This document shows, one piece after another, positions 7,420 to 24,774 of a stretch of DNA of 64,000 bases. How positions within the stretch are numbered: the first letter of the stretch is position 1; every line of letters starts with the position of its first letter. Origin of the DNA: Escherichia phage vB_EcoM_TH18; the sequence record ON075799, one strand, 5' to 3'. A program made the position numbers and the translations under genes. Under the pieces are notes generated by a model, which did no database searches, was not told the origin of the DNA, and saw only the letters and a list, made by a program, of their open reading frames with translations.

Positions 7420-7598
7420 AGGTTAAAATGATTTCTGATTTTTCCGATGTTGCTGGATATCCAAAAACAGGAGATATTCTTGAAGTAAGAGAAGAAATCT
7501 TTAATGGTAGTTTTCTTGAGTGTTACTCTTGCGAATGGAATGGGAAAAGACTTGATATCTATCCATACGAATGCGAAGAGGTATCAGACAATGCTTAA
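7416..7598 (+). CDS. hypothetical protein
   Basis: 60-aa ORF, translationally coupled. Confidence 0.4.
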   Translation: MKVKMISDFSDVAGYPKTGDILEVREEIFNGSFLECYSCEWNGKRLDIYPYECEEVSDNA

Positions 7599-8112
7599 GT
7601 ATAAAGTTGGTTGCTTAATAGAGGCAGCACTTAAAAGGGATGTTAATGTGATAGCTCATGGTTGTAATACATTTTGCACCATGGGGTCTGGAATTGCTAA
7701 AGAAATAAAGAATGCATTCCCAAAAATGTATGCTGAAGATTTAAAGACAGAGAAAGGTGATCGAACAAAACTGGGCAGTTATACTTGGGCTGTCATGAAC
7801 GAAGGTAAGCTGGCGGGTTTTAATTTGTACACACAATACGGCTATAATGGGCGTAGAATGGGTGTTAGAGATTTAAATTATAACGCCCTTTACGATTCTT
7901 TAGCAGCAATGCGAGATTGTTTGCAAAGGCACACAGATGGCTTTATGTCTGATTATAAGATCGGGCTGCCAAAAATAGGTGCTGGGCTAGCAGGTGGGGA
8001 TTGGAAAATCATAGAAACTATGATAGAATCTGTTCTCCATGATTGTGATGTGACAATTTATGTTTTAAATAAAGAGGAGATCCCAGATGGCAAAAGAGAA
8101 CATGCATCCTGA
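7591..8112 (+). CDS. macro-domain protein (ADP-ribose binding/hydrolase family)
   Basis: 'VNVIAHGCN...MGSGIAKEI' and 'IGLPKIGAGLAGGDW' macro-domain signatures; ATG at 7591 with GAGG RBS. Confidence 0.65.
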   Translation: MLKYKVGCLIEAALKRDVNVIAHGCNTFCTMGSGIAKEIKNAFPKMYAEDLKTEKGDRTKLGSYTWAVMNEGKLAGFNLYTQYGYNGRRMGVRDLNYNALYDSLAAMRDCLQRHTDGFMSDYKIGLPKIGAGLAGGDWKIIETMIESVLHDCDVTIYVLNKEEIPDGKREHAS

Positions 8113-8281
8113 TATTGCTTACGATAAAATTGCGGAAGCAATTAAAAGTATTGACCCAAAAATTGTAGATGTGCTGGATCGTAAAGATGCTATGAGCGCA
8201 ATTTATGACGCTTGCTATGAAGTTCTGTGGCAAGATGGTATGGAAGATATTGACGAGGTAGGGGCCAATGATGGAGAGTAA
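8087..8281 (+). CDS. hypothetical protein
   Basis: 64-aa ORF. Confidence 0.4.
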   Translation: MAKENMHPDIAYDKIAEAIKSIDPKIVDVLDRKDAMSAIYDACYEVLWQDGMEDIDEVGANDGE

Positions 8282-8654
8282 ATCTGTGACAGGCTTATCG
8301 AAAGATACATATATTTGTGGGAAGAGATATGCTGGTATCCTGTTTGGTGCTGAACCCTATTTTGGTTTTGGTTATACAAAAGATGTTCGATGCATTTGTG
8401 GATACTTAGCAGATGATCTCAAAAAGCGTGGATTTAGTGGTTCTAGTATCAGGACTTCTGTTGTCGAAAGTCTGATTATGCACGATGGAGAAATCTATGC
8501 TATTACGATGAACAGCGCCTATCGCTTAGGTAGCCTTCAATTACAACATTTTATCTCCAGTCCTGTGTGGAGTCAGGAAATCACGAAACTTCTTGCCCAG
8601 GCAACTCTTGGTGTGACTTTTATTAATAAGGAAGATAGTAATGCAAGCAACTAA
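8268..8654 (+). CDS. hypothetical protein
   Basis: 128-aa ORF. Confidence 0.45.
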   Translation: MMESKSVTGLSKDTYICGKRYAGILFGAEPYFGFGYTKDVRCICGYLADDLKKRGFSGSSIRTSVVESLIMHDGEIYAITMNSAYRLGSLQLQHFISSPVWSQEITKLLAQATLGVTFINKEDSNASN

Positions 8655-9675
8655 GTACCCAAGCACTAGTCAATTTCGCAATGTTATCCGAGCGGTTAAT
8701 GACCGTCTGACTTATGATGGTCGTGATGAGAATGGCAATATAAAGCGTAAGGTTGCCTCTCCAGATCAATATCTCATTTCTTATGTAGGAACAGTTAAAA
8801 TTCACGGGACTAATTGCCGTGTAGTCTTTAATTCTGAAAATGAGGTTGTATACCAGTCCAAAGAACGCGTTTTGTCTTTGGAGGAAGACAATTATGGGTT
8901 TATGGCCTTTATGGTTGAAAAAGACCATAAACCCCTGCTGGGGCAAGTCAAGCAGATCTGCGAAGATCGGGGTATTGAATTTAAGTTCCCAGTAGAAATC
9001 GCTGGGGAATTTGCAGGGAAAGGTATCCAGAAAGGTGTTGCGGTATCTGAAATCATGCCTTTCTTTACTATTTTCCGTGTTGCAGTGGGGAAAGAAAATG
9101 ACCATCGGAAATGGCTAGCTTTAGACGATATTCTTGGCATTGGATTACCAGAACAACGTATTTATAATATTTTAACTTTTGGTAAGTGGGAACTGGATAT
9201 TCCTTTTAACATGCCAGAGACAGTGCAATCAGAAATTGCACAGATTACCGAAGGTGTGGAAAAAGAGTGCCCAGTAGGTAAATATTTTGGCGTATCTGGT
9301 GTTGGTGAGGGTGTGGTATGGACACCTAAAGATCGTCACTTGGCACATGTTTCTTCACTTTGGTTTAAAGTGAAAGGGCAAAAACATTCTGTCTCTAAAG
9401 TGAAAACCCTAGCTGCTGTTGATCCTGTGAAACTGCAATCTATCAAAGATTTTGTGGAGTATGCAGTTACTGAGAACCGTTTACGACAAGGGTTGCAAGA
9501 AATTGGATTGGACATCGCATCTCTGGGGGCATTTATCGCATGGGTTAACCGCGATATCAACAAAGAAGAAGCAGATGTGCTGGAAGCCAACTCTCTTTCT
9601 ATGAGAGATGTGGCGAAGTTCACAACAAACAAAGCCCGTAGTTGGTATATGGAACAACTTAACGAGGTGTCTTAA
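8641..9675 (+). CDS. RNA ligase, Rnl2-like (nucleotidyltransferase)
   Basis: motif I 'KIHGTN', motif IV 'EGVVW', motif V 'FKVKG'. Confidence 0.7.
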   Translation: MQATKYPSTSQFRNVIRAVNDRLTYDGRDENGNIKRKVASPDQYLISYVGTVKIHGTNCRVVFNSENEVVYQSKERVLSLEEDNYGFMAFMVEKDHKPLLGQVKQICEDRGIEFKFPVEIAGEFAGKGIQKGVAVSEIMPFFTIFRVAVGKENDHRKWLALDDILGIGLPEQRIYNILTFGKWELDIPFNMPETVQSEIAQITEGVEKECPVGKYFGVSGVGEGVVWTPKDRHLAHVSSLWFKVKGQKHSVSKVKTLAAVDPVKLQSIKDFVEYAVTENRLRQGLQEIGLDIASLGAFIAWVNRDINKEEADVLEANSLSMRDVAKFTTNKARSWYMEQLNEVS

Positions 9676-9846
9676 TGGCTTTAATTGTTTCTACAACACA
9701 CACAACTGTAGAACGTGGTATGTTAAAGGCAAAGTGTGACACAATTATTTTTGAAGATGAAGAACAGGGCAGAAAGTTTATTGAAGACAATAAAACATTT
9801 GTGTACTCTGTTCAGAAAGCACCTATTGTTAAAGAGAAACAAAACA

Positions 9847-10188
9847 ATGATTACAATTAATGGTAATACAATTTCTGGAAACTATACCAATGGTAGTATC
9901 TCTATCACTACTAAGGGTGATAATGTATATATCAATGGTGATTTAGTTCACACCACAAGCGATAAAAACATCACAGTTATTATCAAAGGTGATGCTAAAG
10001 AGGTACGTACAACATCAGGTGGTATCAATGTCTATGGAAATGTCTCTAATGGCGTGATCTCAACATCTGGGGATATTAATGTTGAAAAAGATATCTTAGG
10101 CAATGTGTCTTCAGTGTCTGGGGATGTCTGCGCAAATACAATCCATGGAAGTGTGAACACAATATCTGGAGATATTACCCATCGTTAA
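9847..10188 (+). CDS. small repeat protein with beta-solenoid-like periodicity
   Basis: 113 aa of reiterated 'SG(D/G)INV...GNVS' units; start chosen at internal ATG 9847. Confidence 0.45.
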   Translation: MITINGNTISGNYTNGSISITTKGDNVYINGDLVHTTSDKNITVIIKGDAKEVRTTSGGINVYGNVSNGVISTSGDINVEKDILGNVSSVSGDVCANTIHGSVNTISGDITHR

Positions 10189-10202
10189 CAGAAAGCCCCT
10201 TT

Positions 10203-10748
10203 ATGGGGCTTATTTGTCTGGAGTTAGTTTTGAAAATAAGATCTTTATTATTTGCTGTTTGCTGTGCACTTTCTCTGTCTATTACCCCTGTTCTAGCCAA
10301 AGAAAGTGCAAAGAAGCCCAGAGTTCTTCATGTTTGTAAGAAGAACGACACAGAGCTTAATATTCTTGCCTGCAATATGTATAAAGAAGGAAGAGGCGAA
10401 GGCGATTATGGAATGATGGGTGTTGCGTTTGTCACGTTGAACAGAAAGGATGACAAAAATTTCCCTCATACTATCAAGAAAGTAGTTTATCAACTTGGGC
10501 AATTCTCTTGGACATTCGGTGGACAATCCTTTAAAGTCTATGAAAAGGACAGATGGTTGAGAGCTAGATTTTATGCTAAAATCTTGATGAGGTTGCATAA
10601 AGACCACAAAAGTTTATACAAAGCTCTTGACTACACAAAATCAGCAACGTACTATCATGCAACTACTGTTAGGCCATCTTGGGCAAAAGTTATGGTGAAA
10701 ACAGTGAAGGTTGGGAATCATATTTTTTACAAGCATCCTGACGTATAA
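10203..10748 (+). CDS. secreted SleB-like cell-wall hydrolase (Hydrolase_2 family), endolysin candidate
   Basis: N-terminal signal-like hydrophobic segment; 'KEGRGE...GMMGVAFVTLNR...FPHTIKKVVYQLGQFS' SleB signature. Confidence 0.6.
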   Translation: MGLICLELVLKIRSLLFAVCCALSLSITPVLAKESAKKPRVLHVCKKNDTELNILACNMYKEGRGEGDYGMMGVAFVTLNRKDDKNFPHTIKKVVYQLGQFSWTFGGQSFKVYEKDRWLRARFYAKILMRLHKDHKSLYKALDYTKSATYYHATTVRPSWAKVMVKTVKVGNHIFYKHPDV

Positions 10749-10768
10749 CTAGTTCATAGAGGTATTGA

Positions 10769-12769
10769 ATGATTATTCAAAGATCTGACAACAAAGTTCA
10801 GGTAACTGGGAACGTAGAAAGATACCAAGCATCAATTGCAATGAATCCTGAGACGTTCAGTATTCTTATCGACGGAATTTATAAAGATAAACCTTTAGCA
10901 GCAGTACGAGAGCCTCTCTTTAACGCTGTAGATGCCCATACAGAGGCAGGGTGTTCTGATAAACCAATCATCATCCACTCACCAACAGACTTGGAGCCTT
11001 GGTATTCTGTTAAGGATACAGGGTTAGGTATGGATCATGAGATGGTAACACGTACATTCATGATGATTGGTGAGTCCACAAAAAGAAACAGTAATGATCT
11101 GGTTGGTGCGAAAGGTATTGGATCAAAAGCACCTCTTGCAGTCACAGATATGTTCACAGTTGTTTCTGTTAAAGACGGAGTGAAAACAACATATTCTGTT
11201 CACAAAAACAGCGGAATACCAGAGGTTGTACCTTTATTCTCTTGTGAAACAACAGAGGAGAATGGTGTAGAAATTAAATTTAACGTAAACACTTGGGAAA
11301 CAGGAGTTTATCGTCAGGCCATTGTAAAATGCCTTCGCTATGCTAAATTTCCATATATTATTAATGATCCTTTTGTTAAAACGCAGATTGAAGATCGTAC
11401 TTATCCTGTTCAGTATCGTTATGAGGATGAAGAGACTGGCTGGGTTCTTGAGATGTATAGTAGCATGTCGAGCAACGCTGATAGTGTTGTTATCATGGGG
11501 CAACAACCATATCTCTCCGATTATCTCTCAACTCGTAAAGAACTGCCCATGATGACGGTATCTATCCCTATTGGGGATTGTAATGTAGATCCAGGCCGAG
11601 AATGGACAGTGGAAGGAAAGAATGACGGAGGATTCCGTGATAAACTTGAAAATTTTGTGACTAAAGCTATCCGACTCCGCGGAGAAGAAATCACAAAAGA
11701 ATTAAGCGATCTGCCAACTTTAAAAGCAGTTCTTGAACATATGAAGTATGTTGGTGGTTATTTCGCTACAAAGTATGGTGCTGCATTTATTGCAAATAAG
11801 TTCAAGAATTATACTGATGGTTCTTACATAGACCACTGTGAAACATATGGTGGCGAAGGCTCACGCCGTGGTAAGGATGAGAAATATTCATACGCAGAGT
11901 TGATGAATGGTCATCCACTGGTTTACAATGATGATCACAAGTATGTGCGCTCTAAATGTAACTGGCTTGCAGAGAAGTTCGGTAAGAGATCGTTTATAAC
12001 CGATGCTGATTACGCTCTGTCCTTATACAGTGATAAATTCTTTGAAGGGATGATTTTCAAGTTATCTGAGCTTGAAAAACGACCAGTGCAAAAAGCAGAT
12101 AAAAAGTATGGTGGCTATGGTTATTACGAACCTGGTCATAAAGTTTGGATAATTAACCAAGATGGCCTCGTAGATGTAACACGTATTTCCCGTGCTCAAT
12201 TCGAGGATATTGAGACGGCTATGGTCTACTGGGGTGGGCAGGTGAAAGGATTATGCCCGTTAGGATACGTTTCCAATCTTAGAACAGTTTGGAGAAAGCA
12301 ACCACCAACATTTCTTAAGAATCTTGGTGTAGCTGGTAAGTTATATATTGTGCCTTTAAACAGATCAAGTTGGCTGCCAGATGAGGCGCGGGTTATAACT
12401 GAGGAGGATATCCATGCTCTTGCAAAAACTAATCTTCTTGAATATCATTTATACCAAGAAGTTGGGAAAGATCATGAGTATCATAACATTGTTAAAGAGC
12501 TTAGCTATTTTGGTGTGGTGGTAGCTAGTTTCCCAAAATGGGAGATGAAGGTAAACATACCCAGTTATTATTCAGTCCCTGGCTACGAAGATAGCCGTGA
12601 GAAAGCATTAGGGATGATTGAGTCTCGGAAGAGAATTGGTAAAAAGCTGCTACAGATTAAGAAAGATCGCTACCCATTGTTAAAATACATTGATGTTAAG
12701 CATTTCAATACTCCAGAGATGCTAGAGTATCGTAAATTTATTGACAGCAAAGGAGAAAAAGATGAGTAA
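10769..12769 (+). CDS. rIIA: rIIA-like protein with N-terminal GHKL (Hsp90/histidine-kinase-like) ATPase domain
   Basis: Bergerat motifs 'EPLFNAVDA', 'DTGLGMD', 'GAKGIGSKA'; followed by rIIB-like gene. Confidence 0.6.
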   Translation: MIIQRSDNKVQVTGNVERYQASIAMNPETFSILIDGIYKDKPLAAVREPLFNAVDAHTEAGCSDKPIIIHSPTDLEPWYSVKDTGLGMDHEMVTRTFMMIGESTKRNSNDLVGAKGIGSKAPLAVTDMFTVVSVKDGVKTTYSVHKNSGIPEVVPLFSCETTEENGVEIKFNVNTWETGVYRQAIVKCLRYAKFPYIINDPFVKTQIEDRTYPVQYRYEDEETGWVLEMYSSMSSNADSVVIMGQQPYLSDYLSTRKELPMMTVSIPIGDCNVDPGREWTVEGKNDGGFRDKLENFVTKAIRLRGEEITKELSDLPTLKAVLEHMKYVGGYFATKYGAAFIANKFKNYTDGSYIDHCETYGGEGSRRGKDEKYSYAELMNGHPLVYNDDHKYVRSKCNWLAEKFGKRSFITDADYALSLYSDKFFEGMIFKLSELEKRPVQKADKKYGGYGYYEPGHKVWIINQDGLVDVTRISRAQFEDIETAMVYWGGQVKGLCPLGYVSNLRTVWRKQPPTFLKNLGVAGKLYIVPLNRSSWLPDEARVITEEDIHALAKTNLLEYHLYQEVGKDHEYHNIVKELSYFGVVVASFPKWEMKVNIPSYYSVPGYEDSREKALGMIESRKRIGKKLLQIKKDRYPLLKYIDVKHFNTPEMLEYRKFIDSKGEKDE

Positions 12770-13754
12770 TCCTTTATTCATGTCACGTCGTGAAGCTCGT
12801 GAATACGCTAAGAAAAATAATATGGTGGTTGTTGATCGTGGTCTAAATGTTCTAAAACGCTGGACAGTTGCACCCAAAAAAGGAATGCCGACAACCAAAA
12901 AGGCTAAGGAAGATCCTGTAGGTATTATGAAGCCAGTGCATACTCTTGCACAACCAATTGTCCTTGTGACCCAAGACAATATCCATATCACTTTGTTAAA
13001 TGGTGAACAATATACTCTAAATAGTAGCAGCCCCATCTTTAAAGAAGTTGGTGTTATCCTTTGGACAGGAGGGATAGATGCTGCTGTACAACGTATTTTA
13101 AAAGAGAAAGAAGCAGAAAAGAAAAAGACCATTGATTTTGGCGATAATTTAGTGTTGATAGATAGTGTTTTGTATTGGCACGGTCAAAAACAGGAAAGCA
13201 GTATTGCTAAGCGAATCATTAAAGATATTGAGAATGATTGCTTTGACGAACGATATGTCAAATTCATGCAGAAGTTGCTACACAACCCGTCGTATGCTTC
13301 TGTTAAAATGCTTTATGATTTTGTAAAACATAATGATCTGGAGATCCTTGAAAACGGAAATATTAAGGCATACAAGAAAATTAAGGCAACTGTAGATGGA
13401 CCACGAGATTGCTATACAGGTAAAGTTCCTAATTATAAAGGGCAAGTTATTTCCATGCCGCGTAATATGGTTGAGGATAATCCCAATAGAACATGTAGCC
13501 AAGGTTTGCATGTTGCATCTATTGACTATGCGGCTACCTTTGAGAAGACTTCAAAGGAACTTGTAGAAGTATCTGTGGATCCGGCAGATATTGTCAGTGT
13601 CCCTTATGACTATAACCAGAAAAAATGCCGTTGCTGTCGCTATGAAGTTCTGACAGGAACACCAAAACCGGTAGGTGCGCCAGATATTATTGTCATTGGT
13701 GTACAGGGTAAAATTCTTGAAGAGATTTATCTACAAGAATCTAAGGAGGACTGA
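12762..13754 (+). CDS. rIIB: rIIB-like protein
   Basis: C-terminal 'MPRNMVEDNPNRTCSQGLHVAS...DIVSVPYDYN' resembles T4 rIIB (from memory); ATG overlaps rIIA stop, RBS AAGGAG. Confidence 0.6.
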   Translation: MSNPLFMSRREAREYAKKNNMVVVDRGLNVLKRWTVAPKKGMPTTKKAKEDPVGIMKPVHTLAQPIVLVTQDNIHITLLNGEQYTLNSSSPIFKEVGVILWTGGIDAAVQRILKEKEAEKKKTIDFGDNLVLIDSVLYWHGQKQESSIAKRIIKDIENDCFDERYVKFMQKLLHNPSYASVKMLYDFVKHNDLEILENGNIKAYKKIKATVDGPRDCYTGKVPNYKGQVISMPRNMVEDNPNRTCSQGLHVASIDYAATFEKTSKELVEVSVDPADIVSVPYDYNQKKCRCCRYEVLTGTPKPVGAPDIIVIGVQGKILEEIYLQESKED

Positions 13755-15058
13755 TGTCTCAATACGGGGTTGGCGTTGAAGATGCTCTTGGCGCTATAAT
13801 GTCCGGTGAAAATGTGTTTATCAGTGGTTATGCAGGTGCTGGAAAGAGTCATACCATAAAAACTATCCAATCCTTATACGCAGGTTCAGTTTTGACAGTA
13901 GCCCCTACAGGGGCTGCTGCCATTAATGTGGATGGTATGACAGCACACAGAGCTTTTGGACTCTCTTTAGGTGTGTCCACTAAAAAAGATGCAGAAGAGA
14001 TAAAGTCAAAAGCTAAGAAATTGCTTAAAAGTAAAGCATTGAAAATACTTATAATCGAAGAAATAAGCATGTTCAGAGCCGACAAACTTTGGGAGATGGA
14101 TATGAAGTGTCGGCTGGCACGTAAAAAACCTAAAGAACCTTTCGGTGGTTTGCAGGTGTGTATGTTCGGGGATTTCTTACAGAATCCACCTGTTTTAAAA
14201 GGTGAAGAAAAAGAGATATACTATCAGTTCCACGACACAGAACTTTGTTGTTTTTCTAAAACATGGAAAGAATTGAACCCATATCCTGTATTTCTTGATA
14301 AAATCTACAGGCAAAGCAGTGTTCATTTTTCAACGCTTCTTAATTGCCTTCGCAAGGGTGAACGTATTCCAGAGATTGTTGAGTTTATGAATACTTATTG
14401 TTACAACATGGGAAAACCCTTGGATGCTATAACAATAACTTCAACAAACGCAGCAGCAGACAAAATAAACAAAAAACGTTTTGATGCAATACCCGGAATC
14501 CCAACAGTTTATAAGGCAAAAAAGACAGGGCAATTTAACCAAACACCTGTACCGGAAGAGTTGTATCTGAAAGAGGGAGCGCAGGTGATGATTACTGTCA
14601 ATGATCCTAAAGGACTAAATGAACCAAGCTATGTGAATGGTTCCCGTGGAGAGATTGTTGAACTACGTAGGTACAGTGTTAAAGTCCGTCTTGAGAATGG
14701 AGATATTGTTGACGTAGAACCTTATGTGTGGGAAAATGTTGAGTATAACCCCATAAAGGTGAAAAACCCAGATGGTACAATAACTGAAGAAATTGAGAAG
14801 ATTATCATTGGTGAGTACAGGGCTTTACCGATTCGCCTTGGGTGGGCTGTTACAATACACAAAGCACAAGGATTAACATTACCGGAAGTTAATGTTGACT
14901 TTGGCAATGGGACTTTTGCACCAGGCATGGCATACGTGGCTTTTAGCAGAGCAACAAGTGCAAAAGGATTAAGGTTATTACGTAGGATCAGGGATAAAGA
15001 TATTATCGTTGATCAACGTCTTGTTAAGTTTTATGAAGAGACTTTCCCTGGTAAGTAG
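13754..15058 (+). CDS. dda: Dda-like SF1B (Pif1/RecD-family) DNA helicase
   Basis: Walker A 'GYAGAGKSH', 'VAPTGAAA', C-terminal 'TIHKAQGLT...AYVAFSRAT'; 434 aa. Confidence 0.7.
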   Translation: MSQYGVGVEDALGAIMSGENVFISGYAGAGKSHTIKTIQSLYAGSVLTVAPTGAAAINVDGMTAHRAFGLSLGVSTKKDAEEIKSKAKKLLKSKALKILIIEEISMFRADKLWEMDMKCRLARKKPKEPFGGLQVCMFGDFLQNPPVLKGEEKEIYYQFHDTELCCFSKTWKELNPYPVFLDKIYRQSSVHFSTLLNCLRKGERIPEIVEFMNTYCYNMGKPLDAITITSTNAAADKINKKRFDAIPGIPTVYKAKKTGQFNQTPVPEELYLKEGAQVMITVNDPKGLNEPSYVNGSRGEIVELRRYSVKVRLENGDIVDVEPYVWENVEYNPIKVKNPDGTITEEIEKIIIGEYRALPIRLGWAVTIHKAQGLTLPEVNVDFGNGTFAPGMAYVAFSRATSAKGLRLLRRIRDKDIIVDQRLVKFYEETFPGK

Positions 15059-15068
15059 GAGATAGCTG

Positions 15069-15494
15069 ATGACCTCATATTCAAAAAGTGAACTTTTAAA
15101 GAAATTTAAAGCTGAATTAAAGGGTTGGTGGGATAATAAAGAATCTCATCATGGTAAAGACACCACACATATCCAGATGGCATCGGTTGATGAAATGATG
15201 GCTGCATTAGGATATGCACCTCGTTCACTACCTAATTACCCAGATGTTAAGGATGGTCGTTTTGGATATTATCGAGCCTGGGGTTCTGAAAGACACCCTC
15301 TAAACCTGTCTTTTGAAGATGCTGTGTCACTTCATAATAATTGTGTTTGTAAAGCTCGTGTTTTAGCACCGGACGCTATCAGCTTTGCTTTACGGAGTAA
15401 AATCGTACAACAGGTGGCTGTCCAGCGTTTGAAAGGTAAAGGTGAGAAAGGGCAGATCAAATCCCAGAAGCGTTGGATTAAGTTCGAGGACTGA
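15069..15494 (+). CDS. hypothetical protein
   Basis: 141-aa ORF. Confidence 0.5.
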   Translation: MTSYSKSELLKKFKAELKGWWDNKESHHGKDTTHIQMASVDEMMAALGYAPRSLPNYPDVKDGRFGYYRAWGSERHPLNLSFEDAVSLHNNCVCKARVLAPDAISFALRSKIVQQVAVQRLKGKGEKGQIKSQKRWIKFED

Positions 15495-15496
15495 TT

Positions 15497-15868
15497 ATGG
15501 AAATATCTACAAGTAAAAGTAAAGGCACAGTAGCAGAAAAAACTTTCCACCGACTCATGGAGATTTCTGAAGAACTCTCTGCAAAAGGTGAGGATCGTAT
15601 GGCGAGTGATGTTAAGGATGCTGCACATGTAATAAACTCCCTGGATGTTATTATCTATCAGTCTTTACAAGCCTGTAAAAGAATGGGTTTTGAATATGAC
15701 CCGACCCTCAAAGAGGGTGAGTTTGCACAAGCGTTCTTCTGGTTGCAGGAAAAAGGCCAGGACGCATATAATTCTCGTATGGCAGACACAAAGTATCTCT
15801 TCTATAAAGGTGTAGAAGAGAAAATAACTGATCTGTTTAACTACTTTAAGGAAAATAAAGATGTTTAA
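15497..15868 (+). CDS. hypothetical protein
   Basis: 123-aa ORF. Confidence 0.5.
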   Translation: MEISTSKSKGTVAEKTFHRLMEISEELSAKGEDRMASDVKDAAHVINSLDVIIYQSLQACKRMGFEYDPTLKEGEFAQAFFWLQEKGQDAYNSRMADTKYLFYKGVEEKITDLFNYFKENKDV

Positions 15869-16043
15869 AGTCGAAGACTTTACAGATTTGAGTCAAGTTT
15901 CAACTGAAAAATTGTTGAAACTACGAGATGTTGCACGAGACAACTTTCTTGAAGCAAAGTTGTCTGCCGAAGAGTCGTGGCAGAGATACGAAGACATTCT
16001 AAATGAAATTAAGGAGCGAGTGCATGTTGAAGAAGCTCTTTAA
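15861..16043 (+). CDS. hypothetical protein
   Basis: 60-aa ORF. Confidence 0.4.
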   Translation: MFKVEDFTDLSQVSTEKLLKLRDVARDNFLEAKLSAEESWQRYEDILNEIKERVHVEEAL

Positions 16044-16350
16044 GTGGTTTTTCCCACCACAACAAAAAGCCGAAAAAGTTTTTGATTTTACTGAGTATAG
16101 GGGTAATGGTCATGATATTACACTGCGTCTCAACCAGTCTGGTGAGGTTGCAGAAGCTGTTATCATCTTATCCGAGGATGTAGAAAAACCGGAGAATGGT
16201 GATTTTGTTATCGTCAATCTTGATGACATTTTTGGTGGTGGGAAAGAAGTGACGACATATGTGATTAGTCACATAGAGTATGTTTCTTCTGAGATCTCAA
16301 GAGCAAGTTTAGTCTTGAGGAAGGAGGATACTAATGCAGACAAAAGCTGA
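16024..16350 (+). CDS. hypothetical protein
   Basis: ATG at 16024 preceded by AAGGAG; upstream in-frame ATG at 16003 less likely. Confidence 0.45.
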   Translation: MLKKLFKWFFPPQQKAEKVFDFTEYRGNGHDITLRLNQSGEVAEAVIILSEDVEKPENGDFVIVNLDDIFGGGKEVTTYVISHIEYVSSEISRASLVLRKEDTNADKS

Positions 16351-16807
16351 TATCTTAATCGAAGATATTGAAAAACTGGCAAAGAAAGCCACTAGAGGGC
16401 ACTGGTGGATAGATAGACATGGACATTCGATGGTATCCTTTCAGGATGATAAGGAAGTAAAAACTGTTTTCATCACAGATCCTAAAATGGGTCCGGCAAA
16501 GAGACATGAGGGAACAGGGAATTTATCTCATTGGCAAAATGACTACGATGCCAGTTACATTGCCACCGCAAGCCCAGATAATGTTCTGTACATTATTAAT
16601 GAGCTAAGAGGAAAACGAGATGCTTATGATAAAATTAAAGAGCATCTCGACAACTTAGACGGTTATGGCGCAGAATTGAAAAAGCGTGTAGAAGCCGAAC
16701 TATATGCTAATGGTTGTCAGAGTTCTCTTGTTCACATATTAGCTTTTGTGGATGCCTTGTTAAAAGAAAATATTGAGTTAAAACAAGAGTTGGGGGAGTA
16801 TGAATAG
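16334..16807 (+). CDS. hypothetical protein
   Basis: 157-aa ORF. Confidence 0.5.
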   Translation: MQTKADILIEDIEKLAKKATRGHWWIDRHGHSMVSFQDDKEVKTVFITDPKMGPAKRHEGTGNLSHWQNDYDASYIATASPDNVLYIINELRGKRDAYDKIKEHLDNLDGYGAELKKRVEAELYANGCQSSLVHILAFVDALLKENIELKQELGEYE

Positions 16808-17084
16808 CAAATCCCCTATGGTAGACATTGAGTTCGAATACGACCATGAGGATCTAGGATTGGTGGTTGTCGAAGCTCTGTTTTCTGTTCAAAAACCTGA
16901 CTTCTTCAGTAAAGAAAGCGACTGGGATTATAACGGTTTTCAGGAACTAGAATATTGCGTTGTATTCAAAAACGGTAAGCAAATCTATCTTGACATTCCA
17001 GATGATGTGCTATACCATCATTTAAGAGAATACCTAAGAGATCTAGAGATAAACGGGTGTTACAATAGAGAAGAAGGTTTCTAG
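16800..17084 (+). CDS. hypothetical protein
   Basis: 94-aa ORF. Confidence 0.45.
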   Translation: MNSKSPMVDIEFEYDHEDLGLVVVEALFSVQKPDFFSKESDWDYNGFQELEYCVVFKNGKQIYLDIPDDVLYHHLREYLRDLEINGCYNREEGF

Positions 17085-17088
17085 AATT

Positions 17089-17310
17089 ATGGTTAAAAAC
17101 ACTGTTAAACTCATTGAGTTCAAAATTAGCAAAACAAAAAGAGAAGAGGTAGAGAGCAAACTGGCCGAACTTCTTGATGATGGTTATGACATTGCAGGAC
17201 AGCATGAAGCTGAAGGTTGGCTGGTGTATACTTTAGTGAAAAGGGTGGCCCAAGTACAAGACATTCCTTACGGGGCTGATGGAAGCCCAGTCCACTCGGC
17301 GTTGCATTGA
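17089..17310 (+). CDS. hypothetical protein
   Basis: 73-aa ORF. Confidence 0.4.
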   Translation: MVKNTVKLIEFKISKTKREEVESKLAELLDDGYDIAGQHEAEGWLVYTLVKRVAQVQDIPYGADGSPVHSALH

Positions 17311-18079
17311 TTTCTGGTATACTCAAAAGGCCCACGTTACGGGCCTGTTTTCTGGTATGGGAGGTGTATTGAGTGACACAGTTTTATGCATGTTTGACGG
17401 ATCAGGTATCATGGGCCACGAATGGGCAAAAAATGGGCACAAAGTGATATGCCTTAATTATGATGGCGCTGATCACGGCGGTTATGAAAGTATCAGAATA
17501 AAACACAAAAACATAGAATACATTAATGTTTGGATAGATGACCAGTTTAACCCAGTAGAGATAGGGCTTTGTAAGCCAAGTATTATATTCGCATTTCCAC
17601 CATGTACAGACATGGCTGTTAGTGGTGCAGCGCATTTCGCAAGAAAAGCTGCAAAAGACCCTTTATTCCAGATAAAGGCTGTAAATACAGCAAAGGTGGC
17701 AGCAAGGTTGGCAGATGAATACGGCTGCCCTTACATGATAGAAAATCCAGTTAGTGTTCTATCTTCTCTGTGGCGTAAACCAGATCATTCATTTCATCCT
17801 TATGAGTACGGCGGGTATCTATCAGAGAATGATGTTCATCCATTTTTTCCAGAATACATAAAACCAAGAGATGCCTACCCTAAGAAGACTTGTTTGTGGA
17901 CAGGTAATGGTTTTAAGATGCCGGAGAAATTACCTGTCCCCGTGTTAAGCGGGTATTCTGATCAACACCTAAAGCTGGGTGGGAAATCAAAAAAGACAAA
18001 GGTTATAAGGTCGCTAACCCCAAGAGGATTTGCCAAAGCCGTATTCCTATATAATGATTTTAGGAGGGTTGGTGGATAA
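17279..18079 (+). CDS. DNA (cytosine-5)-methyltransferase-like protein (short)
   Basis: motif I-like 'LFSGMGG', motif IV-like 'FPPCTDMAVSG', motif VI-like 'ENPVSVL'. Confidence 0.4.
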   Translation: MEAQSTRRCIDFWYTQKAHVTGLFSGMGGVLSDTVLCMFDGSGIMGHEWAKNGHKVICLNYDGADHGGYESIRIKHKNIEYINVWIDDQFNPVEIGLCKPSIIFAFPPCTDMAVSGAAHFARKAAKDPLFQIKAVNTAKVAARLADEYGCPYMIENPVSVLSSLWRKPDHSFHPYEYGGYLSENDVHPFFPEYIKPRDAYPKKTCLWTGNGFKMPEKLPVPVLSGYSDQHLKLGGKSKKTKVIRSLTPRGFAKAVFLYNDFRRVGG

Positions 18080-18221
18080 AAATGTCAAGATTCTCACAGG
18101 AACTAGTATTTCAGAATTAGAATTAAAACTAAACACTTGGTTTAGAAAAGGTTACTGTATTTCAGGTGGCATATCTGTGTGTAATGGCTGGTATATGGCT
18201 GTAGTCACCAAACCCTTCTAA
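18030..18221 (+). CDS. hypothetical protein
   Basis: 63-aa ORF overlapping end of previous gene; weak. Confidence 0.3.
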   Translation: MPKPYSYIMILGGLVDKNVKILTGTSISELELKLNTWFRKGYCISGGISVCNGWYMAVVTKPF

Positions 18222-18230
18222 GGAGAAGAG

Positions 18231-21158
18231 ATGAAGATTACAAAATGGGGGGCTGGTGCATACTTTGAAGGTGAGAACCCAAAAGCATTCCGTCCTGAAC
18301 GAAAAAGTGGTGGTAAAGTGAATTATCAGAAAAAAGAAGAAGAAACCGTAGAGTCTGTCCTAGATAGCACAAGGATCCTGGCTGTCCCCCAAATGGATAT
18401 TAGTTTAGATGCAGCTAAGTACTTTAAGATCAGATCTGCAACAGATTTGAAAGACGGCACTACAGTAGTGGCAACATATCTTCCATATTATGACAAATAT
18501 GGGAAATTGACAGGGTACAAGAAACGAGACTGGTCTGTCCCAAAAGAAAAAAAAGGTCATTTCTCTGTTGTTGGCACAGTGAAGGCCTCCTCTCAATTTT
18601 TTGGGCAACATGAAGCCGCTATGGGATCTGGTAAAAAACAGATCTTTATTGTTGAGGGGGAGGGTGATGTAACGGCTGGCTGGCAAGCTGGGTTTGAGTA
18701 TATTAAATTTCTTCATAGTAATCCTAATACGTCACGTTCAGTACGTGAGTGGGCAAGTAATGCTTTAAAAGGCATCAAAGCCATTCAGGATGGCGAAGAG
18801 GTTTCTAATTGCCCGACATTACCTTTTATCGGGTTGAACTGTGGAACAGCCAATGCGGTGGATACATTTGCCCACAACGAAAAGTTTATCAGGGAATATG
18901 AAAAGATTGTCCTTGGTTTAGACAATGATGAAGCCACAGCAAGGGAAAAAGAACACAGAATTAAGAAAGGTAAGGAAGCCACAGATGATGTTGCTAGTTT
19001 TTTGTTGTCTGACAACATCTATGTTGCACGATACCCGAATGAACGCAATGACCCAAATGGTGTTAAAGATATCCGGGATATTTACAAAAAAGGTAAGTGG
19101 ATGGATATCTGGAACATGTTTGCTAAAGCGCAGGATAAATATGTTCCTGACAAATTGATTGGGTTGGAGAGAATATCTATTGAAAATCTCCGTAAAAAGA
19201 AAAAAGATGGCGTTCCGTTGCCTTGCTTTCCTCGTTTGTATGAACTAACAAGAGGCCCACGAACAGGAGAATTGTGGACACTGACAGGCCCATCTGGAGC
19301 TGGGAAATCAACTTTCTCAAGAAAGATTGAATACGCAATTATCGAGTACCTCCGTAACATGGATATTCCCCGACTAGACGGATGGAAAGAGAACGAGAAG
19401 ATTGCAATTATCCGTCTAGAGGAGGATGAAGAGGAGTCTGTAAACAGTCTATATGCTGAGGAGTTAAAAATTGACCCGAAAGCATTTGTTGCAGACCCAG
19501 AGCAATTTCTTACCGATGAGCAGCACTTAGCGATACACCAACGGTGGATTGCCGAAGATAAGGTTAAAATTTTTGACCACTTTGGTTCAATACCGACTGA
19601 CCAATTGCTACAAAAATTGAAACAGATGGTTTTCCTTGATGGGTGCAGATGGATTATCTTAGATCACTTGTCGATGGTAATATCAGGATTAAAATCTGAT
19701 AACGAGCGAAGAGATTTAGATAACATCATGACGGAATTGGCTGCCTTCTGCAAAAAATATGACGTGTTTATCCTCAGTATCAGCCATATGAAGCGTAAAG
19801 AGATACAGATTCCAAAAGATAAGGATGGTAATCTCTTACCATTTTGGTATCCTGTGCGGAAAGAGGATCTTCGTGGTTGTCTTAACGGTTATGTAGAGTT
19901 CCTTACACCAGAAGGTTGGGTGCAGTTAAAAGACTACACACCGGGACAAAAAGTGGCACAGTGGGCAGACGGGGAGATATCTTTTACTGACGATGTTGAG
20001 CACATTAGACTTGAATGTCGAGAGGATATGTATGCATTCCGCAATTCAAGTTTTGAGATGACTGTCTCTGGAGAGCATCGTGTTCTACTGGATGTGGGGG
20101 GTGAGAAACAAGTTCTCACTGCGGAAGAGATTGCTAAACTGGCAAAATACGCTAGTTTTAAAGAACGATCTTCTATTGTCAGACATTACAGTGCTGGCAA
20201 TTTCCAGACATCATTAACAGAATGGCAAATCCGCGCCATGGTGATGTTTGCCGCTGATGGATGCTATCACAGCAATGGTTTGTGTAAGATGGAATTAAGA
20301 AAAGAGAGGAAAATAGAAAGAGCAACTAAAATTCTTGACAAACTTGGCGTGCATTATTCTCACGCAGTAAATAAAAGAGGGAACACAACCTTCAGGACTA
20401 AGGCATTGACAGAGAAAAAACCTCTACATCTATGCCATAATTGGTTTATTGAACCAAGCCATACCCTCAAAATTCTACTGGATGAGGTGTTCTTGTGGGA
20501 CGGTAGCGATAAAGGTGATAAGGGAAGAGAGTTTACTTCTAAGTATCGAGAAGAGTGTGATGTTGTTCAACACGCTGCTCATGCGAATGGAATGAGCACA
20601 AAACTCTACTCACGAACAGTAAATGGTGTTACATACTACACATTAAGTGTGTATCGGGAAGGTTCTTGTAAAAATAAGACATCTTTACGATCTCTTAAAC
20701 TGGAGAGAGAGCCTTCATGGGATGGATATAAATACTGCTTCAAAGTACCATCCAGCTATTTTGTTGTTCGACAAAACGGTGTGGTGTTCGTCACAGGAAA
20801 TAGTGCAGCACTCGAGCAGTTATCATGGGTTGTATTAGGTGTTGAACCTGAAGAACTCCCTGATCGCTCTCGTGGGCGTATTCGTAGCGTTGTAATGAAA
20901 AACCGTCCACATAAAAAATTAGGTATAGCGGATACTCTGATTATGGATGATAATGGTCAGTTTTCTGATGCATCTGGTTGGGTGTGGGAAGATGGTATGT
21001 TTAAACTTAATGGGGAGGTAATGCTAAGACCTAAATCAATGATTCAAAGTCTGGAACTTGAAACACCTGTGGGGAAAATTGCTGTTTCTGTTCCTCAACA
21101 AGAACCTGCTGTTGTTATTGAGCAACCTGAAGATTTAGATAGCGATTCTCCATTTTGA
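18231..21158 (+). CDS. primase-helicase (T7 gp4-like; Toprim + DnaB-family helicase) containing an intein
   Basis: 'EGEGD'/'DND' Toprim-like, Walker A 'GPSGAGKST', Walker B 'IILDH', helicase motif H4 'DLRG/SAALEQ' interrupted by a 308-aa insert. Confidence 0.7.
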   Translation: MKITKWGAGAYFEGENPKAFRPERKSGGKVNYQKKEEETVESVLDSTRILAVPQMDISLDAAKYFKIRSATDLKDGTTVVATYLPYYDKYGKLTGYKKRDWSVPKEKKGHFSVVGTVKASSQFFGQHEAAMGSGKKQIFIVEGEGDVTAGWQAGFEYIKFLHSNPNTSRSVREWASNALKGIKAIQDGEEVSNCPTLPFIGLNCGTANAVDTFAHNEKFIREYEKIVLGLDNDEATAREKEHRIKKGKEATDDVASFLLSDNIYVARYPNERNDPNGVKDIRDIYKKGKWMDIWNMFAKAQDKYVPDKLIGLERISIENLRKKKKDGVPLPCFPRLYELTRGPRTGELWTLTGPSGAGKSTFSRKIEYAIIEYLRNMDIPRLDGWKENEKIAIIRLEEDEEESVNSLYAEELKIDPKAFVADPEQFLTDEQHLAIHQRWIAEDKVKIFDHFGSIPTDQLLQKLKQMVFLDGCRWIILDHLSMVISGLKSDNERRDLDNIMTELAAFCKKYDVFILSISHMKRKEIQIPKDKDGNLLPFWYPVRKEDLRGCLNGYVEFLTPEGWVQLKDYTPGQKVAQWADGEISFTDDVEHIRLECREDMYAFRNSSFEMTVSGEHRVLLDVGGEKQVLTAEEIAKLAKYASFKERSSIVRHYSAGNFQTSLTEWQIRAMVMFAADGCYHSNGLCKMELRKERKIERATKILDKLGVHYSHAVNKRGNTTFRTKALTEKKPLHLCHNWFIEPSHTLKILLDEVFLWDGSDKGDKGREFTSKYREECDVVQHAAHANGMSTKLYSRTVNGVTYYTLSVYREGSCKNKTSLRSLKLEREPSWDGYKYCFKVPSSYFVVRQNGVVFVTGNSAALEQLSWVVLGVEPEELPDRSRGRIRSVVMKNRPHKKLGIADTLIMDDNGQFSDASGWVWEDGMFKLNGEVMLRPKSMIQSLELETPVGKIAVSVPQQEPAVVIEQPEDLDSDSPF
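19878..20801 (+). mobile_element. intein (308 aa) in helicase motif H4
   Basis: begins Cys 'CLNGYVEFLTPEGW', ends '...VVFVTGN' followed by Ser; flanks rejoin to 'DLRG-SAALEQ' (cf. DnaB 'DLRESGSIEQ'). Confidence 0.6.
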
Positions 21159-21256: not shown

Positions 21257-21353
21257 AGAAACATATGTCAAAAATAGGCAGTTTTCCACATAATCTATAA
21301 CCAACTAAGAGATGGGCGACGATACAGTCAAGCCCATCTTGAATAGGAGGAGT

Positions 21354-23390
21354 ATGAAAGGACTTTTTTTAGCCGATACAGAGGCTGATGGATTATTAGA
21401 AGAGGCAACTAAATATCACTGCACACTTTTTAAAGAATATGCTGTAAATAACTGGGTGTTGTTTCTCGATCCTGCTCACAAGGAATATCAGAGTGCAGTT
21501 AATTTTGCACGCAGCAAGGAAGGTGTTAATTTACGAATCCTTTCTTATGATGATTTTTACTCTTGGTTACAGACCGAACCAAGAGGGATAGCAATACATA
21601 ACCTGTTCGGCTATGACTTACGCCTGTGGAAAAAACTTTCTGGGATTGAATATGATATGTTCAAAGACCCAAAATGCATGGGGACGATAGGTAATAAACA
21701 GGTAAATCTTTACGACACTCTTTCAATGAGTCGTGTTCTTTACCCAGACCGCCCATTGCCTAATGGCTGCCCAGACTCTGTATTGAACCCTGTAACAGGA
21801 AAACGTGACAGGGTTGGGCCACACGGCTTATTGGCATGGGGTTATCGTGTAGCAAACAAGAAAGTGCAGATTGATGATTGGCGTAATCAGCCATTGTGGG
21901 AATATGTAAACCGTGTATGGGAAGACGTTATCATTAACGAACTTGTGTGGAAAGCTCTTATTGATGAGTCAAATGGTACGCGATGGCCTGATGACAAGCA
22001 GTTTATGTATACTGATAAACCTCACGGGATGCACCAGATTAATTGGAAAAATGCATTACGTAGGAGAATGCTCACAGACTATTTGATGATAGAGCAAGAA
22101 ATACAGGGTGTATACTTTAATCGGGAGGAGGCAGAAAAATTAAGAGATCGCATAGATAAGATGATGCGAGAAATTGAAGAAGAGGTAGAACCACTTCTTC
22201 CAAAAAAAGAGATGACGAAATCCCAACAACCAAAATTCCCAGCTAACCCTTTTGACACAGCGGGCAATATATCTCATCATGGGTGGAATTGGTTGGAATA
22301 TAAACTTGGCTATCCTGTTAACAGAGAAGCTCTGGAGTTCAAGGCTCCACCAAAAACAGCCTTTAAGAGTAACGGGGATGTAAGTGCAGCAGGGGAGAGA
22401 TATTGCATCCAGAATGGCATTGAAGATCCGGCTTTATACGGTGATTTCATTCGTTCCCAGCGAACCAAAGAGAACACACTCGAACCTTTACCGCCAGATC
22501 TTCTAGAGAAGGCTAAAGAAGACCTTCGAAATAGAAAAATGCCAGATTTAATGGTTCCAATGAAAATCTCTAATCAAGATGATATTAAAAAATATTTGAT
22601 CAAAGATGCTGGTTGGAAACCTACACTGTGGCGTGTAAAAGATGTTACTAAGGATCAATTTAAAAAGGCCCGTGAAGATTCTGAAATCGATGTACTAGTT
22701 AAGAAGTACATAGAAGAGTTGGCAGAATCTGAATATAAATCTCTTATTCTTGAATACCTTAATGATTCAGATGAGAAATTCAACATTTCAGAACGTAAGT
22801 TTGACCATCGCCATGCATCTGAAAGGGGTTATTCAGAGATATTTAAGAAATTTCGGCGCAAGGCACGCCAGTTACCGACATCTCCTCAACTAAAAGATAA
22901 TTTTGGGCATCTGTGCCCAAATCTGGAGAAAATTGATGTGCATATGGCAAAACAGATTGTTAAGTGGCTATCACTTCGTAACAGGCGATCTGTTTTAGAC
23001 CCAATGGATGAGGATAAGACGGATACAGGGTTATTAAATCACCCTCGTTTAGACATTGACGGAAAACTCCCAGCACGTTTTTCTGGAATCACTAACACGG
23101 GCAGGTGCAAGCATACTGTTTGCGCAAACATGCCCAAGCCTGATCCGAAGGTCTTGTTGGGAAAAGAAATGCGGGGTCTTTGGACAGTCCCTGAAGGCTA
23201 CTACCTGATGGGTTGTGATGGATCTAACTTAGAAGGTATGATTGCCGCAGCAGGAGCTTTTGAGTTTGATGGCGGTGAATATTTACGTATCATGATGGAA
23301 GAGGATGCCCATGAACGAAATGCAAGAGCATACACAATAGCCGCAGGAAAGGAGGTAACACGCTCTGGAGGAAAGGGGATTACGTATGGT
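21354..23390 (+). CDS. DNA polymerase (family A, T7 gp5-like) exon 1: 3'-5' exonuclease + polymerase motifs A and first half of B
   Basis: N-term 'MKGLFLADTEADGLLEEATKYHC' like T7 gp5 'DIEANALLESVTKFHC'; motif A 'CDGSNLE'; ends '...RSGGKGITYG' then stops in all frames; ATG 21354 with AGGAGG (ORF-track start 21312 less likely). Confidence 0.7.
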
Positions 23391-24124
23391 TAATGATAGC
23401 CCCCTTACAAAGTAATTTGTAAGGCGCACCCATTGAATTGCTGGGAAGTCTGACCGAGTTATGTCGAAGATAATCAGCAGGTAAGCGAATGCTTCCCTCT
23501 TACAAAAGGAGGGAGAATATGAGTACATTTTGTTGTATAATCTGCGGTGAGCAATGTGTTAAAACTGGTAAAAATCAAAAAGTATGTCTCTCTGAAGGCT
23601 GTAAAAGAGAATATCCAAAGATAAAAACCAGAGAATATAGACGCAGAAAGGCCGAAAAAGAAAATAGGCTTGATAGAGTTGGCATAGGAAAAGGTGGTGG
23701 GCAACCTTGTGGAAAATTGTCCAAATTTTATAAAAATGGTATATCGATGTTTCGTAAGTTATCCCCTGTCATAAAGGAACAGAGAAGATACTGTAATAGA
23801 TGTAATAAAGATCTTCTTTATGCAGGTAAGGATGAATGGTGCGTTCATCATATTGACCATGACAGGACGAATAACGAAATAAGTAATTTTGAATTACTTT
23901 GTAAAAAATGCCATCAAATAGAACATAAATGTTGGGAAGCATTCGAAACTTCAACGACTAGCCGAAAGGCGTAGGGCCAAGCGGTGAGGGAAACCTCCAG
24001 TCTTTTAGACTGCCGAAGCGGTGGGCATCCTGAAAAGGATGAAGATATAGTCTGATCTGCATAGAAATATGTAGCAGTTCCTAAGAGGACGGGCATGGTG
24101 TAGCGAGCCATGTTGAACAATATG
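23391..24124 (+). mobile_element. group I intron 1 (with HNH ORF)
   Basis: splits motif B ('...ITYG | IMYGAQAPKIA'); upstream exon ends in T, insert ends in G; shares 'AATTGC-GGGAA' and 'GATATAGTCTGA' elements with intron 2. Confidence 0.55.
23519..23974 (+). CDS. HNH homing endonuclease (intron-encoded)
   Basis: 'CVHHIDHDRTNNEISNFELLCKKCHQIEH' HNH motif with zinc-binding Cys pairs; RBS AAGGAGGG. Confidence 0.65.
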   Translation: MSTFCCIICGEQCVKTGKNQKVCLSEGCKREYPKIKTREYRRRKAEKENRLDRVGIGKGGGQPCGKLSKFYKNGISMFRKLSPVIKEQRRYCNRCNKDLLYAGKDEWCVHHIDHDRTNNEISNFELLCKKCHQIEHKCWEAFETSTTSRKA

Positions 24125-24457
24125 ATCATGTATGGAGCACAGGCTCCTAAGATAGCCGCAATGCTGGGTATCCCCCTTAATAGAGCACAGGCTGTAATAG
24201 ATGCATTCTGGGATAGTAACTTCGGGTTGAAAATGCGTAGGGAGCGGTTGGAAAAATTCTGGGAGGCAAATGGGAGACGCTATATTCCAGGCATGGACGG
24301 GCGTAAAATTTGGACTCGTTCTAAACATTCTCTGCTGAATGCTTACCAACAAAACGGTGGCGCTTCATTGTTTGACCTCATGGGAGTCCTGTTCCATTGG
24401 GAATTGGTAAAACGGGGATGGTACGACCAAGGTGTCAGGAGGGTTATCTATTACCAT
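24125..24457 (+). CDS. DNA polymerase exon 2 (rest of motif B to start of motif C)
   Basis: 'IMYGAQAPKIAAMLGI...RVIYYH' ; ends exactly before 'DE' of motif C. Confidence 0.6.
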
Positions 24458-24774
24458 AAACAATATTGTGGCTTCATGCAGTAATGCATGTCGAAAACCT
24501 CTCTAATTGACGGGAAAGCTAAGTTGATTCTTATAATTTATTGTGTTATAAGGACAATATGCCAATCCGCAGCGAAGCATCCCTACGGGATGAACGTTCA
24601 ACGACTATCGAAAGCACACTAGTAATGTGTAAGTGAGTAGAGTAGGCCAGCAAGTGCGGTCCAAACGGGAGGAACCCTTGAAAAAGGGTTATGATATAGT
24701 CTGACCCACAGGAGAAATCTTGTGGCTATGCACGTAACGGTGCGGGGGAGAGTAGCGAACTCCTTGAACTGGTG
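24458..24774 (+). mobile_element. group I intron 2 (ORF-less)
   Basis: splits motif C 'YYH | DEIQV'; ends in G; conserved elements shared with intron 1. Confidence 0.5.

Follow-up and report, generated by a model that had tools for sequence, protein, structure and literature searches.

A predicted Hsp90-like ATPase domain in rIIA of the rIIA/rIIB gene pair of Escherichia phage vB_EcoM_TH18

Results

The rIIA and rIIB genes and their junction

A stretch of 64,000 nucleotides from Escherichia phage vB_EcoM_TH18 (sequence record ON075799; one strand, 5' to 3'), referred to below as the window, carries at positions 10769-13754 two adjacent genes, rIIA and rIIB, which are the subject of this study. 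A preliminary description of the locus, made from the letters alone, had placed there a protein of 666 amino acids followed by a next gene, within 10769-13754, and these coordinates and this length were confirmed. The pair is laid out as follows.

10769-12769, plus strand: rIIA gene, an open reading frame of 666 amino acids, stop codon included
12762-13754, plus strand: rIIB gene, 330 amino acids, stop codon included
12752-12769, plus strand: rIIA/rIIB junction, with a GGAG ribosome-binding site at 12752-12755, the rIIB ATG at 12762 and the rIIA stop codon TAA at 12767-12769

When called mechanically, the rIIB reading frame begins with a TTG at 12741. Judging from the sequence, the true start is almost certainly the ATG at 12762 instead, because a GGAG lies 6 nucleotides upstream of it, because it overlaps the end of rIIA, and because this start is annotated in both GenBank OK136180 and NC_025830. 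The sequence around the rIIB start, read directly, is AAGGAGAAAAAGATGAGTAA. Within it the rIIB ATG and the rIIA stop codon overlap as ATGAGTAA, and the two genes share 8 nucleotides, which implies translational coupling.

Over 10769-13754 the sequence is 100% identical, with like coordinates, to that of Escherichia phage 18-1-2 (OK136180), a member of the genus Avunavirus in the subfamily Vequintavirinae, where both genes are labelled "hypothetical protein". OK136180 is a 79-kb "partial genome" from a marmot respiratory tract, and the relative Av-05 (NC_025830) measures 121 kb.

Assignment of the pair to the rII families

Profile searches, which the preliminary description had named as a check that could overturn its assignment, returned the rIIA and rIIB families. 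The first protein matched PHROG 612 "RIIA" at full length (residues 1-660, E 5.2e-124), and the second matched PHROG 609 "RIIB" (E 2.9e-67). In BLASTP comparisons with the T4 prototypes, taken from NC_000866 (rIIA, NP_049616; rIIB, NP_049889), the first 292 residues of rIIA aligned at 28% identity (E 1e-20) and the last 205 residues of rIIB at 35% identity (E 5e-39); the earlier proposal that the second gene bears the C-terminal motifs of rIIB is borne out by these matches. The first protein combines homology to T4 rIIA, an N-terminal GHKL domain with motifs I-IV and an rIIB gene directly downstream, and the second is homologous to the conserved core and C-terminal domain of T4 rIIB.

Both families are large. 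By tblastn, rIIA-like sequence was present in 2829 of 50,697 phage records, and the rIIB core was matched in 7497 representative clusters (50% identity) of a metagenome-scale library. Close homologues of rIIB carry the precomputed Pfam label PF26926, and the local copy of Pfam, which holds no rIIB model, gave only weak matches below the cut-off for rIIB. By sequence, the two genes of this Avunavirus coliphage are orthologues of rIIA and rIIB, a known and ordinary gene pair. Their identity is already on record, as the RefSeq entry of the 95.6%-identical phage Av-05 names both.

The ATPase domain of rIIA

The N-terminal part of rIIA contains the following predicted features; invariance refers to an alignment of 53 diverse rIIA homologues, down to about 20% identity.

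10847-11362, plus strand: N-terminal GHKL (Bergerat-fold) ATPase domain, Hsp90 type, residues ~27-198 (Pfam, hhalign, PDB profile and Foldseek)
10910-10933, plus strand: motif I (N box), E48-PLF-N52-AV-D55, aligned with "RELISNASDA" of HtpG; E48, N52 and D55 invariant in 53 of 53
11015-11029, plus strand: motif II (G1 box), D83-T-G85-L-G87, aligned with "DNGVGM" of HtpG; D83 and G85 invariant
11075-11128, plus strand: ATP-lid segment S103-T104-K105 and motif III (G2 box), G113-AK-G116-I-G118-S-K120, aligned with "IGQFGVGFYS" of HtpG; invariant in 53 of 53
11261-11275, plus strand: motif IV, N165-G166-V-E-I ("NGVEI"), aligned with "RGTEI" of HtpG; G166 invariant and E168 nearly so

The preliminary description had claimed three Bergerat-fold motifs in this region. 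Each occurs exactly once and in canonical order (E48-x3-N52-x2-D55, D83-x-G85-x-G87 and G113-x2-G116-x-G118), and Pfam, hhalign and the homologue alignment show that they are no chance matches. Residues 45-147 matched the Pfam domain HATPase_c_3 at E 1.5e-8 with 35.2 bits, the curated cut-off being 25, and E48, N52, D55, D83, G85, S103, T104, K105, G113, G116, G118, K120 and G166 are invariant in all 53 homologues. An AlphaFold2 model of rIIA, built from the same alignment, has a mean predicted local distance difference test (pLDDT) score of 88.2, and most of residues 40-200 score above 90. Internal stretches of low confidence are found only at 106-115 (pLDDT below 50) and 442-452, the former as expected in a model of a mobile ATP lid. 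With motifs I-IV and, in the predicted model, an alpha/beta sandwich fold, the domain belongs to the GHKL (Bergerat-fold) class. By analogy, E48 would be the catalytic base, N52 a ligand of Mg2+, and D83 the residue that contacts adenine.

A GHKL ATPase domain in rIIA has been published (Iyer et al. 2021, PMC7824862). The preserved site had been offered in the preliminary description as a handle on rII function; the preservation is confirmed, but the handle is not new, since the site is published and, as its conservation indicates, belongs to the family at large, T4 included, and is not special to this phage.

Likeness of rIIA to Hsp90

When the 53-sequence rIIA profile was compared with PDB sequences, the 60 distinct matches all belonged to the Hsp90 family (Hsp90, TRAP1, GRP94 and HtpG), and none was a MutL, GyrB, MORC or histidine kinase. 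The top 50 PDB matches of the rIIA model in Foldseek were likewise all of the Hsp90 family (TRAP1, Hsp90, Hsc82 and HtpG; E 7e-16 to 8e-13). These alignments span about 480-720 columns and include TRAP1 fragments consisting of the N-terminal domain plus the middle domain, at target-normalised template-modelling scores of 0.43-0.47. A GHKL domain of the MutL, GyrB or MORC type was rejected, as none of these was found among the 60 profile matches or the top 50 fold matches. Single-sequence phmmer searches of PDB sequences with rIIA or rIIB gave nothing meaningful; only the rIIA profile reached Hsp90. In a direct comparison by hhalign, residues 27-198 of rIIA aligned with residues 14-197 of Escherichia coli HtpG (probability 96.7%, E 3.8e-10), and the alignment takes in the helix characteristic of Hsp90, "YS-x-K-x(2-3)-RE-x(2)-SNA-x-DA". 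The profile matches and this alignment identify the N-terminal domain of rIIA as one of the Hsp90 type.

Beyond the N-terminal domain, G244, Y248, G269, R277 and E278 are invariant in 53 of 53 homologues, and the last two define a further candidate feature.

11597-11602, plus strand: R277-E278, candidate equivalent of the catalytic-loop arginine of the Hsp90 middle domain (S335-R336-E337 in HtpG), from hhalign and 53/53 invariance

The family consensus around R277-E278, "IGDxxIxASRExLQ", resembles the catalytic loop of HtpG, PLNVSREILQ, which contains R336. When residues 195-345 of rIIA were aligned by hhalign with residues 216-500 of HtpG, R277-E278 fell exactly on R336-E337 of "SREILQ". The score of this alignment was 25.3, compared with a mean of 12.0 (standard deviation 2.0, maximum 19.8) for shuffles of the HtpG segment, 0 of 200 of which reached it; the hhalign probability was only 12.8%. 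In addition, tblastn alignments to T4-like rIIA typically end at residue 278, and the conserved core of rIIA is therefore taken to run from the GHKL domain through the R277-E278 loop.

The Pfam HSP90 model (PF00183) found no match in rIIA or in any of the 53 homologues at E <= 0.1. For this reason, and because conservation of the C-terminal half (residues ~350-666) does not reach beyond Vequintavirinae, rIIA is by sequence Hsp90-like and is not filed as a member of the Hsp90 family in the strict sense. That it keeps an Hsp90-type split active site is probable but not proven. No phage paper that connects rIIA with Hsp90 or HtpG was found in the literature searched, where papers on Fc-gamma-RIIA dominated.

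The rIIB protein

Two features of rIIB stand out.

12954-13655, plus strand: conserved rIIB core, residues ~65-298, found family-wide (the region matched in the 7497 clusters)
13494-13511, plus strand: motif C245-S-Q-G-L-H250, with invariant Cys and His

Across 45 diverse rIIB proteins, T4 included, the invariant residues are N175, G199, K205, R234, V237, C245, G248, H250, Y256, P274, P281, K288, R290 and Y294; these 14 recur in T4 and in 43 diverse clusters. The polar ones among them (K205, R234, C245, H250, Y256, K288, R290 and Y294; 13374-13645) form a cluster that looks, from its conservation, like a putative binding or catalytic site. The rIIB model has a mean pLDDT of 82.8, mostly above 85 in the core. 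A Foldseek search of the PDB with it gave no significant match to a solved structure (best E 0.31). Among predicted viral structures (BFVD) there were 31 matches at E <= 1e-3. Those with names are nearly all of the rIIB type, and they belong to phages of the T4-like and N4-like kinds and to phages of Caulobacter, Delftia and cyanobacteria; one match is the RIIA-RIIB fusion of phage RB43. A loose likeness between the "CSxGLH" of rIIB and the "DCSG" motif of NlpC/P60 proteins was dropped, as no fold match supports it.

In other Vequintavirinae rIIB has 405-450 amino acids; with 330, this rIIB is shorter by about 75-120 amino acids, or by about 90-100 on a narrower estimate. The relatives have two copies of an N-terminal module, "FxSRxxARxFA...(V/I)(V/I)D(R/H)...RWxV", whereas this phage and Av-05 have one (12762-13000); the module has no Pfam match. 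Hydropathy analysis revealed no transmembrane segment in rIIA or rIIB (maximum 19-residue Kyte-Doolittle mean, 1.1), and an integral-membrane nature of either protein was rejected on that ground.

Gene neighbourhood

Directly downstream of rIIB lies a helicase gene.

13754-15058, plus strand: Pif1/Dda-like helicase gene (Pfam PIF1, E 9.4e-26; PHROG 325 "Dda-like helicase", E 4.8e-103)

Its ATG overlaps the rIIB stop codon as TGATG. The gene is treated here as context and is not shown to be a member of the rII module. Adjacency of rIIA and rIIB is kept in Vequintavirus and Suspvirus. The helicase follows rIIB in Vequintavirus NHEP1 as well, but not in SUSP1; the relatedness of rIIA, measured by tblastn, is 39% identity over 99% of its length for NHEP1 and 33% over 46% for SUSP1. 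The whole order endolysin-rIIA-rIIB-helicase is kept in NHEP1. EdH4, another phage with an rII module, belongs to the genus Vequintavirus too.

Upstream, a gene for a SleB-type cell-wall hydrolase (10203-10748, plus strand; Pfam Hydrolase_2, E 4.9e-20) ends 20 nucleotides before rIIA, inside a block of early and replication genes. The N-terminal leader of the hydrolase is hydrophobic. The records disagree on the start of the gene, which OK136180 puts at 10230 and Av-05 at the equivalent of 10203. Just 5' of this gene is a strong terminator-like hairpin (10193-10211, plus strand; AAGCCCC-TTTAT-GGGGCTT, then ATTTGT), and a second terminator-like hairpin is located at 17328-17346. Scans of 7500-18500 remained at chance level, with 34 promoters against 31.3 expected from shuffled sequence and 8 terminators against 7.0.

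Other features of the window

Further upstream of the rII genes, all on the plus strand, 7591-8112 encodes a macro-domain protein (Pfam Macro, E 4.6e-5), 8641-9675 an RNA ligase (Pfam RNA_ligase, E 4.4e-10; PHROG 548, E 9.8e-73) and 9847-10188 a protein of 113 amino acids. Host-conflict or repair functions are plausible for the first two. The third, which has no Pfam match, is built from short repeats of the Gly/Asn/Asp-Ile/Val type (such as "GDNVYINGD", "SGGINVYGN" and "SGDINVEKD"); its sequence suggests a beta-solenoid.

A family-A DNA polymerase gene at 21312-25074 (plus strand) is divided into three pieces (21312/21354-23393, 24110-24484 and 24772-25074), which match consecutive parts of PHROG 8888. 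Between the second and third pieces there is a complete group I intron at 24448-24722 (Rfam, 91 bits, E 4.7e-22), and between the first and second a 161-amino-acid open reading frame at 23489-23974 (plus strand), the matches of which to HNH endonucleases are weak and below the cut-off. It could be a homing endonuclease in a second intron missed by Rfam, or a free-standing HNH gene that splits the polymerase. The GenBank record gives the first two pieces as separate coding sequences and leaves the third unannotated. Near 32 kb the guanine-cytosine skew changes sign: between 4 and 32 kb it is positive, and thereafter mostly negative, in keeping with a switch of the coding strand. In the 64-kb window, no tRNA genes were detected.

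Discussion

Function of the pair

The function of rII modules has been examined in several other phages. Knock-down of rIIA or rIIB in T4, MM02, EdH4, SUSP1 and N4 lowers plating only on E. coli that expresses lambda RexAB, and on plain E. coli the plating of the same five phages is unaffected (PMC11879866). The plating of rII mutants on Rex-type hosts, which the preliminary description had suggested as a check, is thus already published for five divergent rII modules (PMC11879866). Likewise, transposon insertions within the T4 genes rIIA and rIIB show depletion only with RexAB present (bioRxiv 10.1101/2025.11.20.689424). Protection appears to have a price. RIIB of T6 alone activates a gasdermin/CARD defence system from Lysobacter, and RIIB-null phages that escape this system become sensitive to RexAB (bioRxiv 10.1101/2023.05.28.542683).

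By analogy with these phages, a conditionally required counter-defence module is the best-supported reading of the pair. Overall, rIIA and rIIB most probably constitute a translationally coupled accessory module, in which an Hsp90-like split ATPase and its partner counter abortive infection of the RexAB type. If the analogy with Hsp90 holds, rIIA would bind and hydrolyse ATP as a split-site ATPase, with the nucleotide held in the N-terminal domain and R277 of the next domain closing onto the gamma-phosphate, and ATP would drive a clamp-like conformational cycle, probably of a dimer. The two proteins probably act as one machine, given the overlap of the genes and natural rIIA-rIIB fusions; the stop/start overlap, the RIIA-RIIB fusion of RB43, the two-part layout of PHROG 609 (rIIA at profile positions 31-180 and rIIB at 809-1047) and the adjacency kept in Vequintavirus and Suspvirus are the reasons to treat them as a unit. 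As in the other phages, the module would be dispensable on naive hosts and would block prophage-encoded abortive infection of the RexAB type, which acts by membrane depolarisation, at the cost that rIIB itself can be sensed by other defence systems.

A more specific version is put forward tentatively, as a possibility that we would sooner doubt than believe. In this version rIIA would be more than a GHKL domain with a variable tail. It would be a paralogue, carried by phages, within the lineage of Hsp90 chaperones, with a split site of two domains, made up of a nucleotide pocket in the N-domain and a catalytic-loop Arg of the middle domain in an "SRExLQ" motif. The rII module would be an ATP-driven clamp, with rIIB as a dedicated client or co-factor, and its target a protein of the host or of a defence system, for example RexA or RexB. 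If so, the tools of Hsp90 research, namely E-to-A and R-to-A mutants and inhibitors of the N-domain, could be turned on six decades of rII genetics.

Alternative explanations

The genes around the pair have suggested other roles. The pair lies in a co-directional block with Pif1/Dda-like helicase, primase/helicase and DNA polymerase genes, and it could act on DNA or gene expression, with rIIB as a transcription factor or nucleoid regulator and rIIA as a MutL- or topoisomerase-like GHKL motor that works with the adjoining replication genes; indeed, the T4 rIIB orthologue has been listed among putative phage-specific transcription factors (Iyer et al. 2021, PMC7824862). However, MutL, GyrB, Topo VI-B and MORC are represented in 0 of 60 PDB profile matches and 0 of the 50 top fold matches, all of which are Hsp90, and Pfam and PHROG detected no DNA-binding, Toprim or nuclease domain in either protein. 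The helicase is absent next to rII in SUSP1, and knock-down of rII in five phages caused no plating defect in the absence of Rex (PMC11879866). We regard a DNA-directed role as quite unlikely. A literal regulator of lysis timing, as the label "lysis inhibitor" would have it, is highly improbable, even with an endolysin-like Hydrolase_2 (SleB-type) gene that ends 20 nucleotides before rIIA and an endolysin-rIIA-rIIB order that is kept in NHEP1 at 39% rIIA identity. The name reflects a historical rapid-lysis plaque phenotype, but whether the rII phenotype shows depends on prophage-encoded systems, the hydrolase is not next to rII in SUSP1 or T4, and in T4 it is rI and the holin T, rather than rII, that true lysis inhibition requires.

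It is also conceivable that no ATP is hydrolysed at the GHKL site, which would then be a vestige or serve as a nucleotide-binding switch, and that rIIA is a pseudo-enzyme scaffold for rIIB. Such a scaffold might be expected from the literature searched, in which no biochemical ATPase activity was found for any rIIA, and from departures from Hsp90 at the site, namely Val in motif IV where Hsp90 has Thr and an ATP lid about 12 residues shorter than that of HtpG. On the other hand, E48, N52, D83, both glycine boxes and the candidate gamma-phosphate sensor R277 are invariant in 53 of 53 homologues at identities down to about 20%, which is the pattern expected under selection for catalysis, and we consider a pseudo-enzyme very unlikely. 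The fold matches to chaperones, the lack of conservation of the neighbours outside Vequintavirinae and the invariance of the catalytic residues make all of these explanations less likely than a counter-defence module with an Hsp90-like ATPase.

Several points weigh against that module as described. Its function is carried over by analogy from other phages and genera, to the tested members of which rIIA is only 28-39% identical. The literature searched yielded no report that any rIIA hydrolyses ATP, and catalysis is deduced from the conservation of the ATP-site residues. The match to the Hsp90 middle domain is weak by hhalign, its basis being one short motif, the shuffle control and the lengths of the Foldseek alignments, and the C-terminal half of rIIA has no assigned function. 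Finally, T4 annotations describe the proteins as "membrane-associated"; with no transmembrane segment, any association of rIIA or rIIB with the membrane would have to be peripheral.

Significance

For the records, the consequence is a correction of OK136180, in which two "hypothetical proteins" become rIIA and rIIB, as the RefSeq entry of Av-05 already has them. The added value is family-wide rather than specific to this phage, and consists in the assignment of the ATPase to the Hsp90 type and in a candidate catalytic-loop arginine. An Hsp90-like rIIA ATPase with such an arginine points to a clamp-type mechanism, and makes E48, D83 and R277, together with their T4 equivalents, targets for mutation. 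The wider question of the rII system, how an ATPase and its partner stop abortive infection of the RexAB type, may be approached in this way.

Comparison with known systems

The closest system is that of Av-05 (Av05_00149/Av05_00148 in NC_025830), which is 95.6% identical in nucleotide sequence over the whole 2986 bp, with point differences only. Gene lengths (666 and 330 amino acids), starts and neighbours are the same, and the record names the two products "RIIA lysis inhibitor" and "RIIB lysis inhibitor". T4 shares with this pair the order of rIIA and rIIB and the ATPase motifs. It differs in the C-terminal half of rIIA, which is unrelated at the sequence level, in the N-terminus of rIIB, where T4 has a different leader region in place of the small "FxSRxEARxYA...VVDRG...RWxV" module, in its neighbours, and in that its rIIA and rIIB are without this kind of overlap. 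The rII modules of SUSP1, EdH4, MM02 and N4 consist of the same two families in adjacent genes, with divergent sequences. In RB43, both domains are joined in a single RIIA-RIIB chain (UniProt Q56C47, 1049 amino acids; match to the rIIB model, E 4.7e-21), whereas in this phage rIIA and rIIB are separate, and the overlap of their stop and start codons is all that couples them.

Compared with the Hsp90 family (HtpG, TRAP1, GRP94 and Hsp82), rIIA has the N-terminal GHKL domain, the glycine boxes and an "SRE"-like Arg-Glu that may correspond to the catalytic loop. Unlike these chaperones, it has an ATP lid some 12 residues shorter than that of HtpG, no sequence match past the catalytic loop, no recognisable Hsp90 C-terminal dimerisation domain, and a dedicated partner, rIIB.

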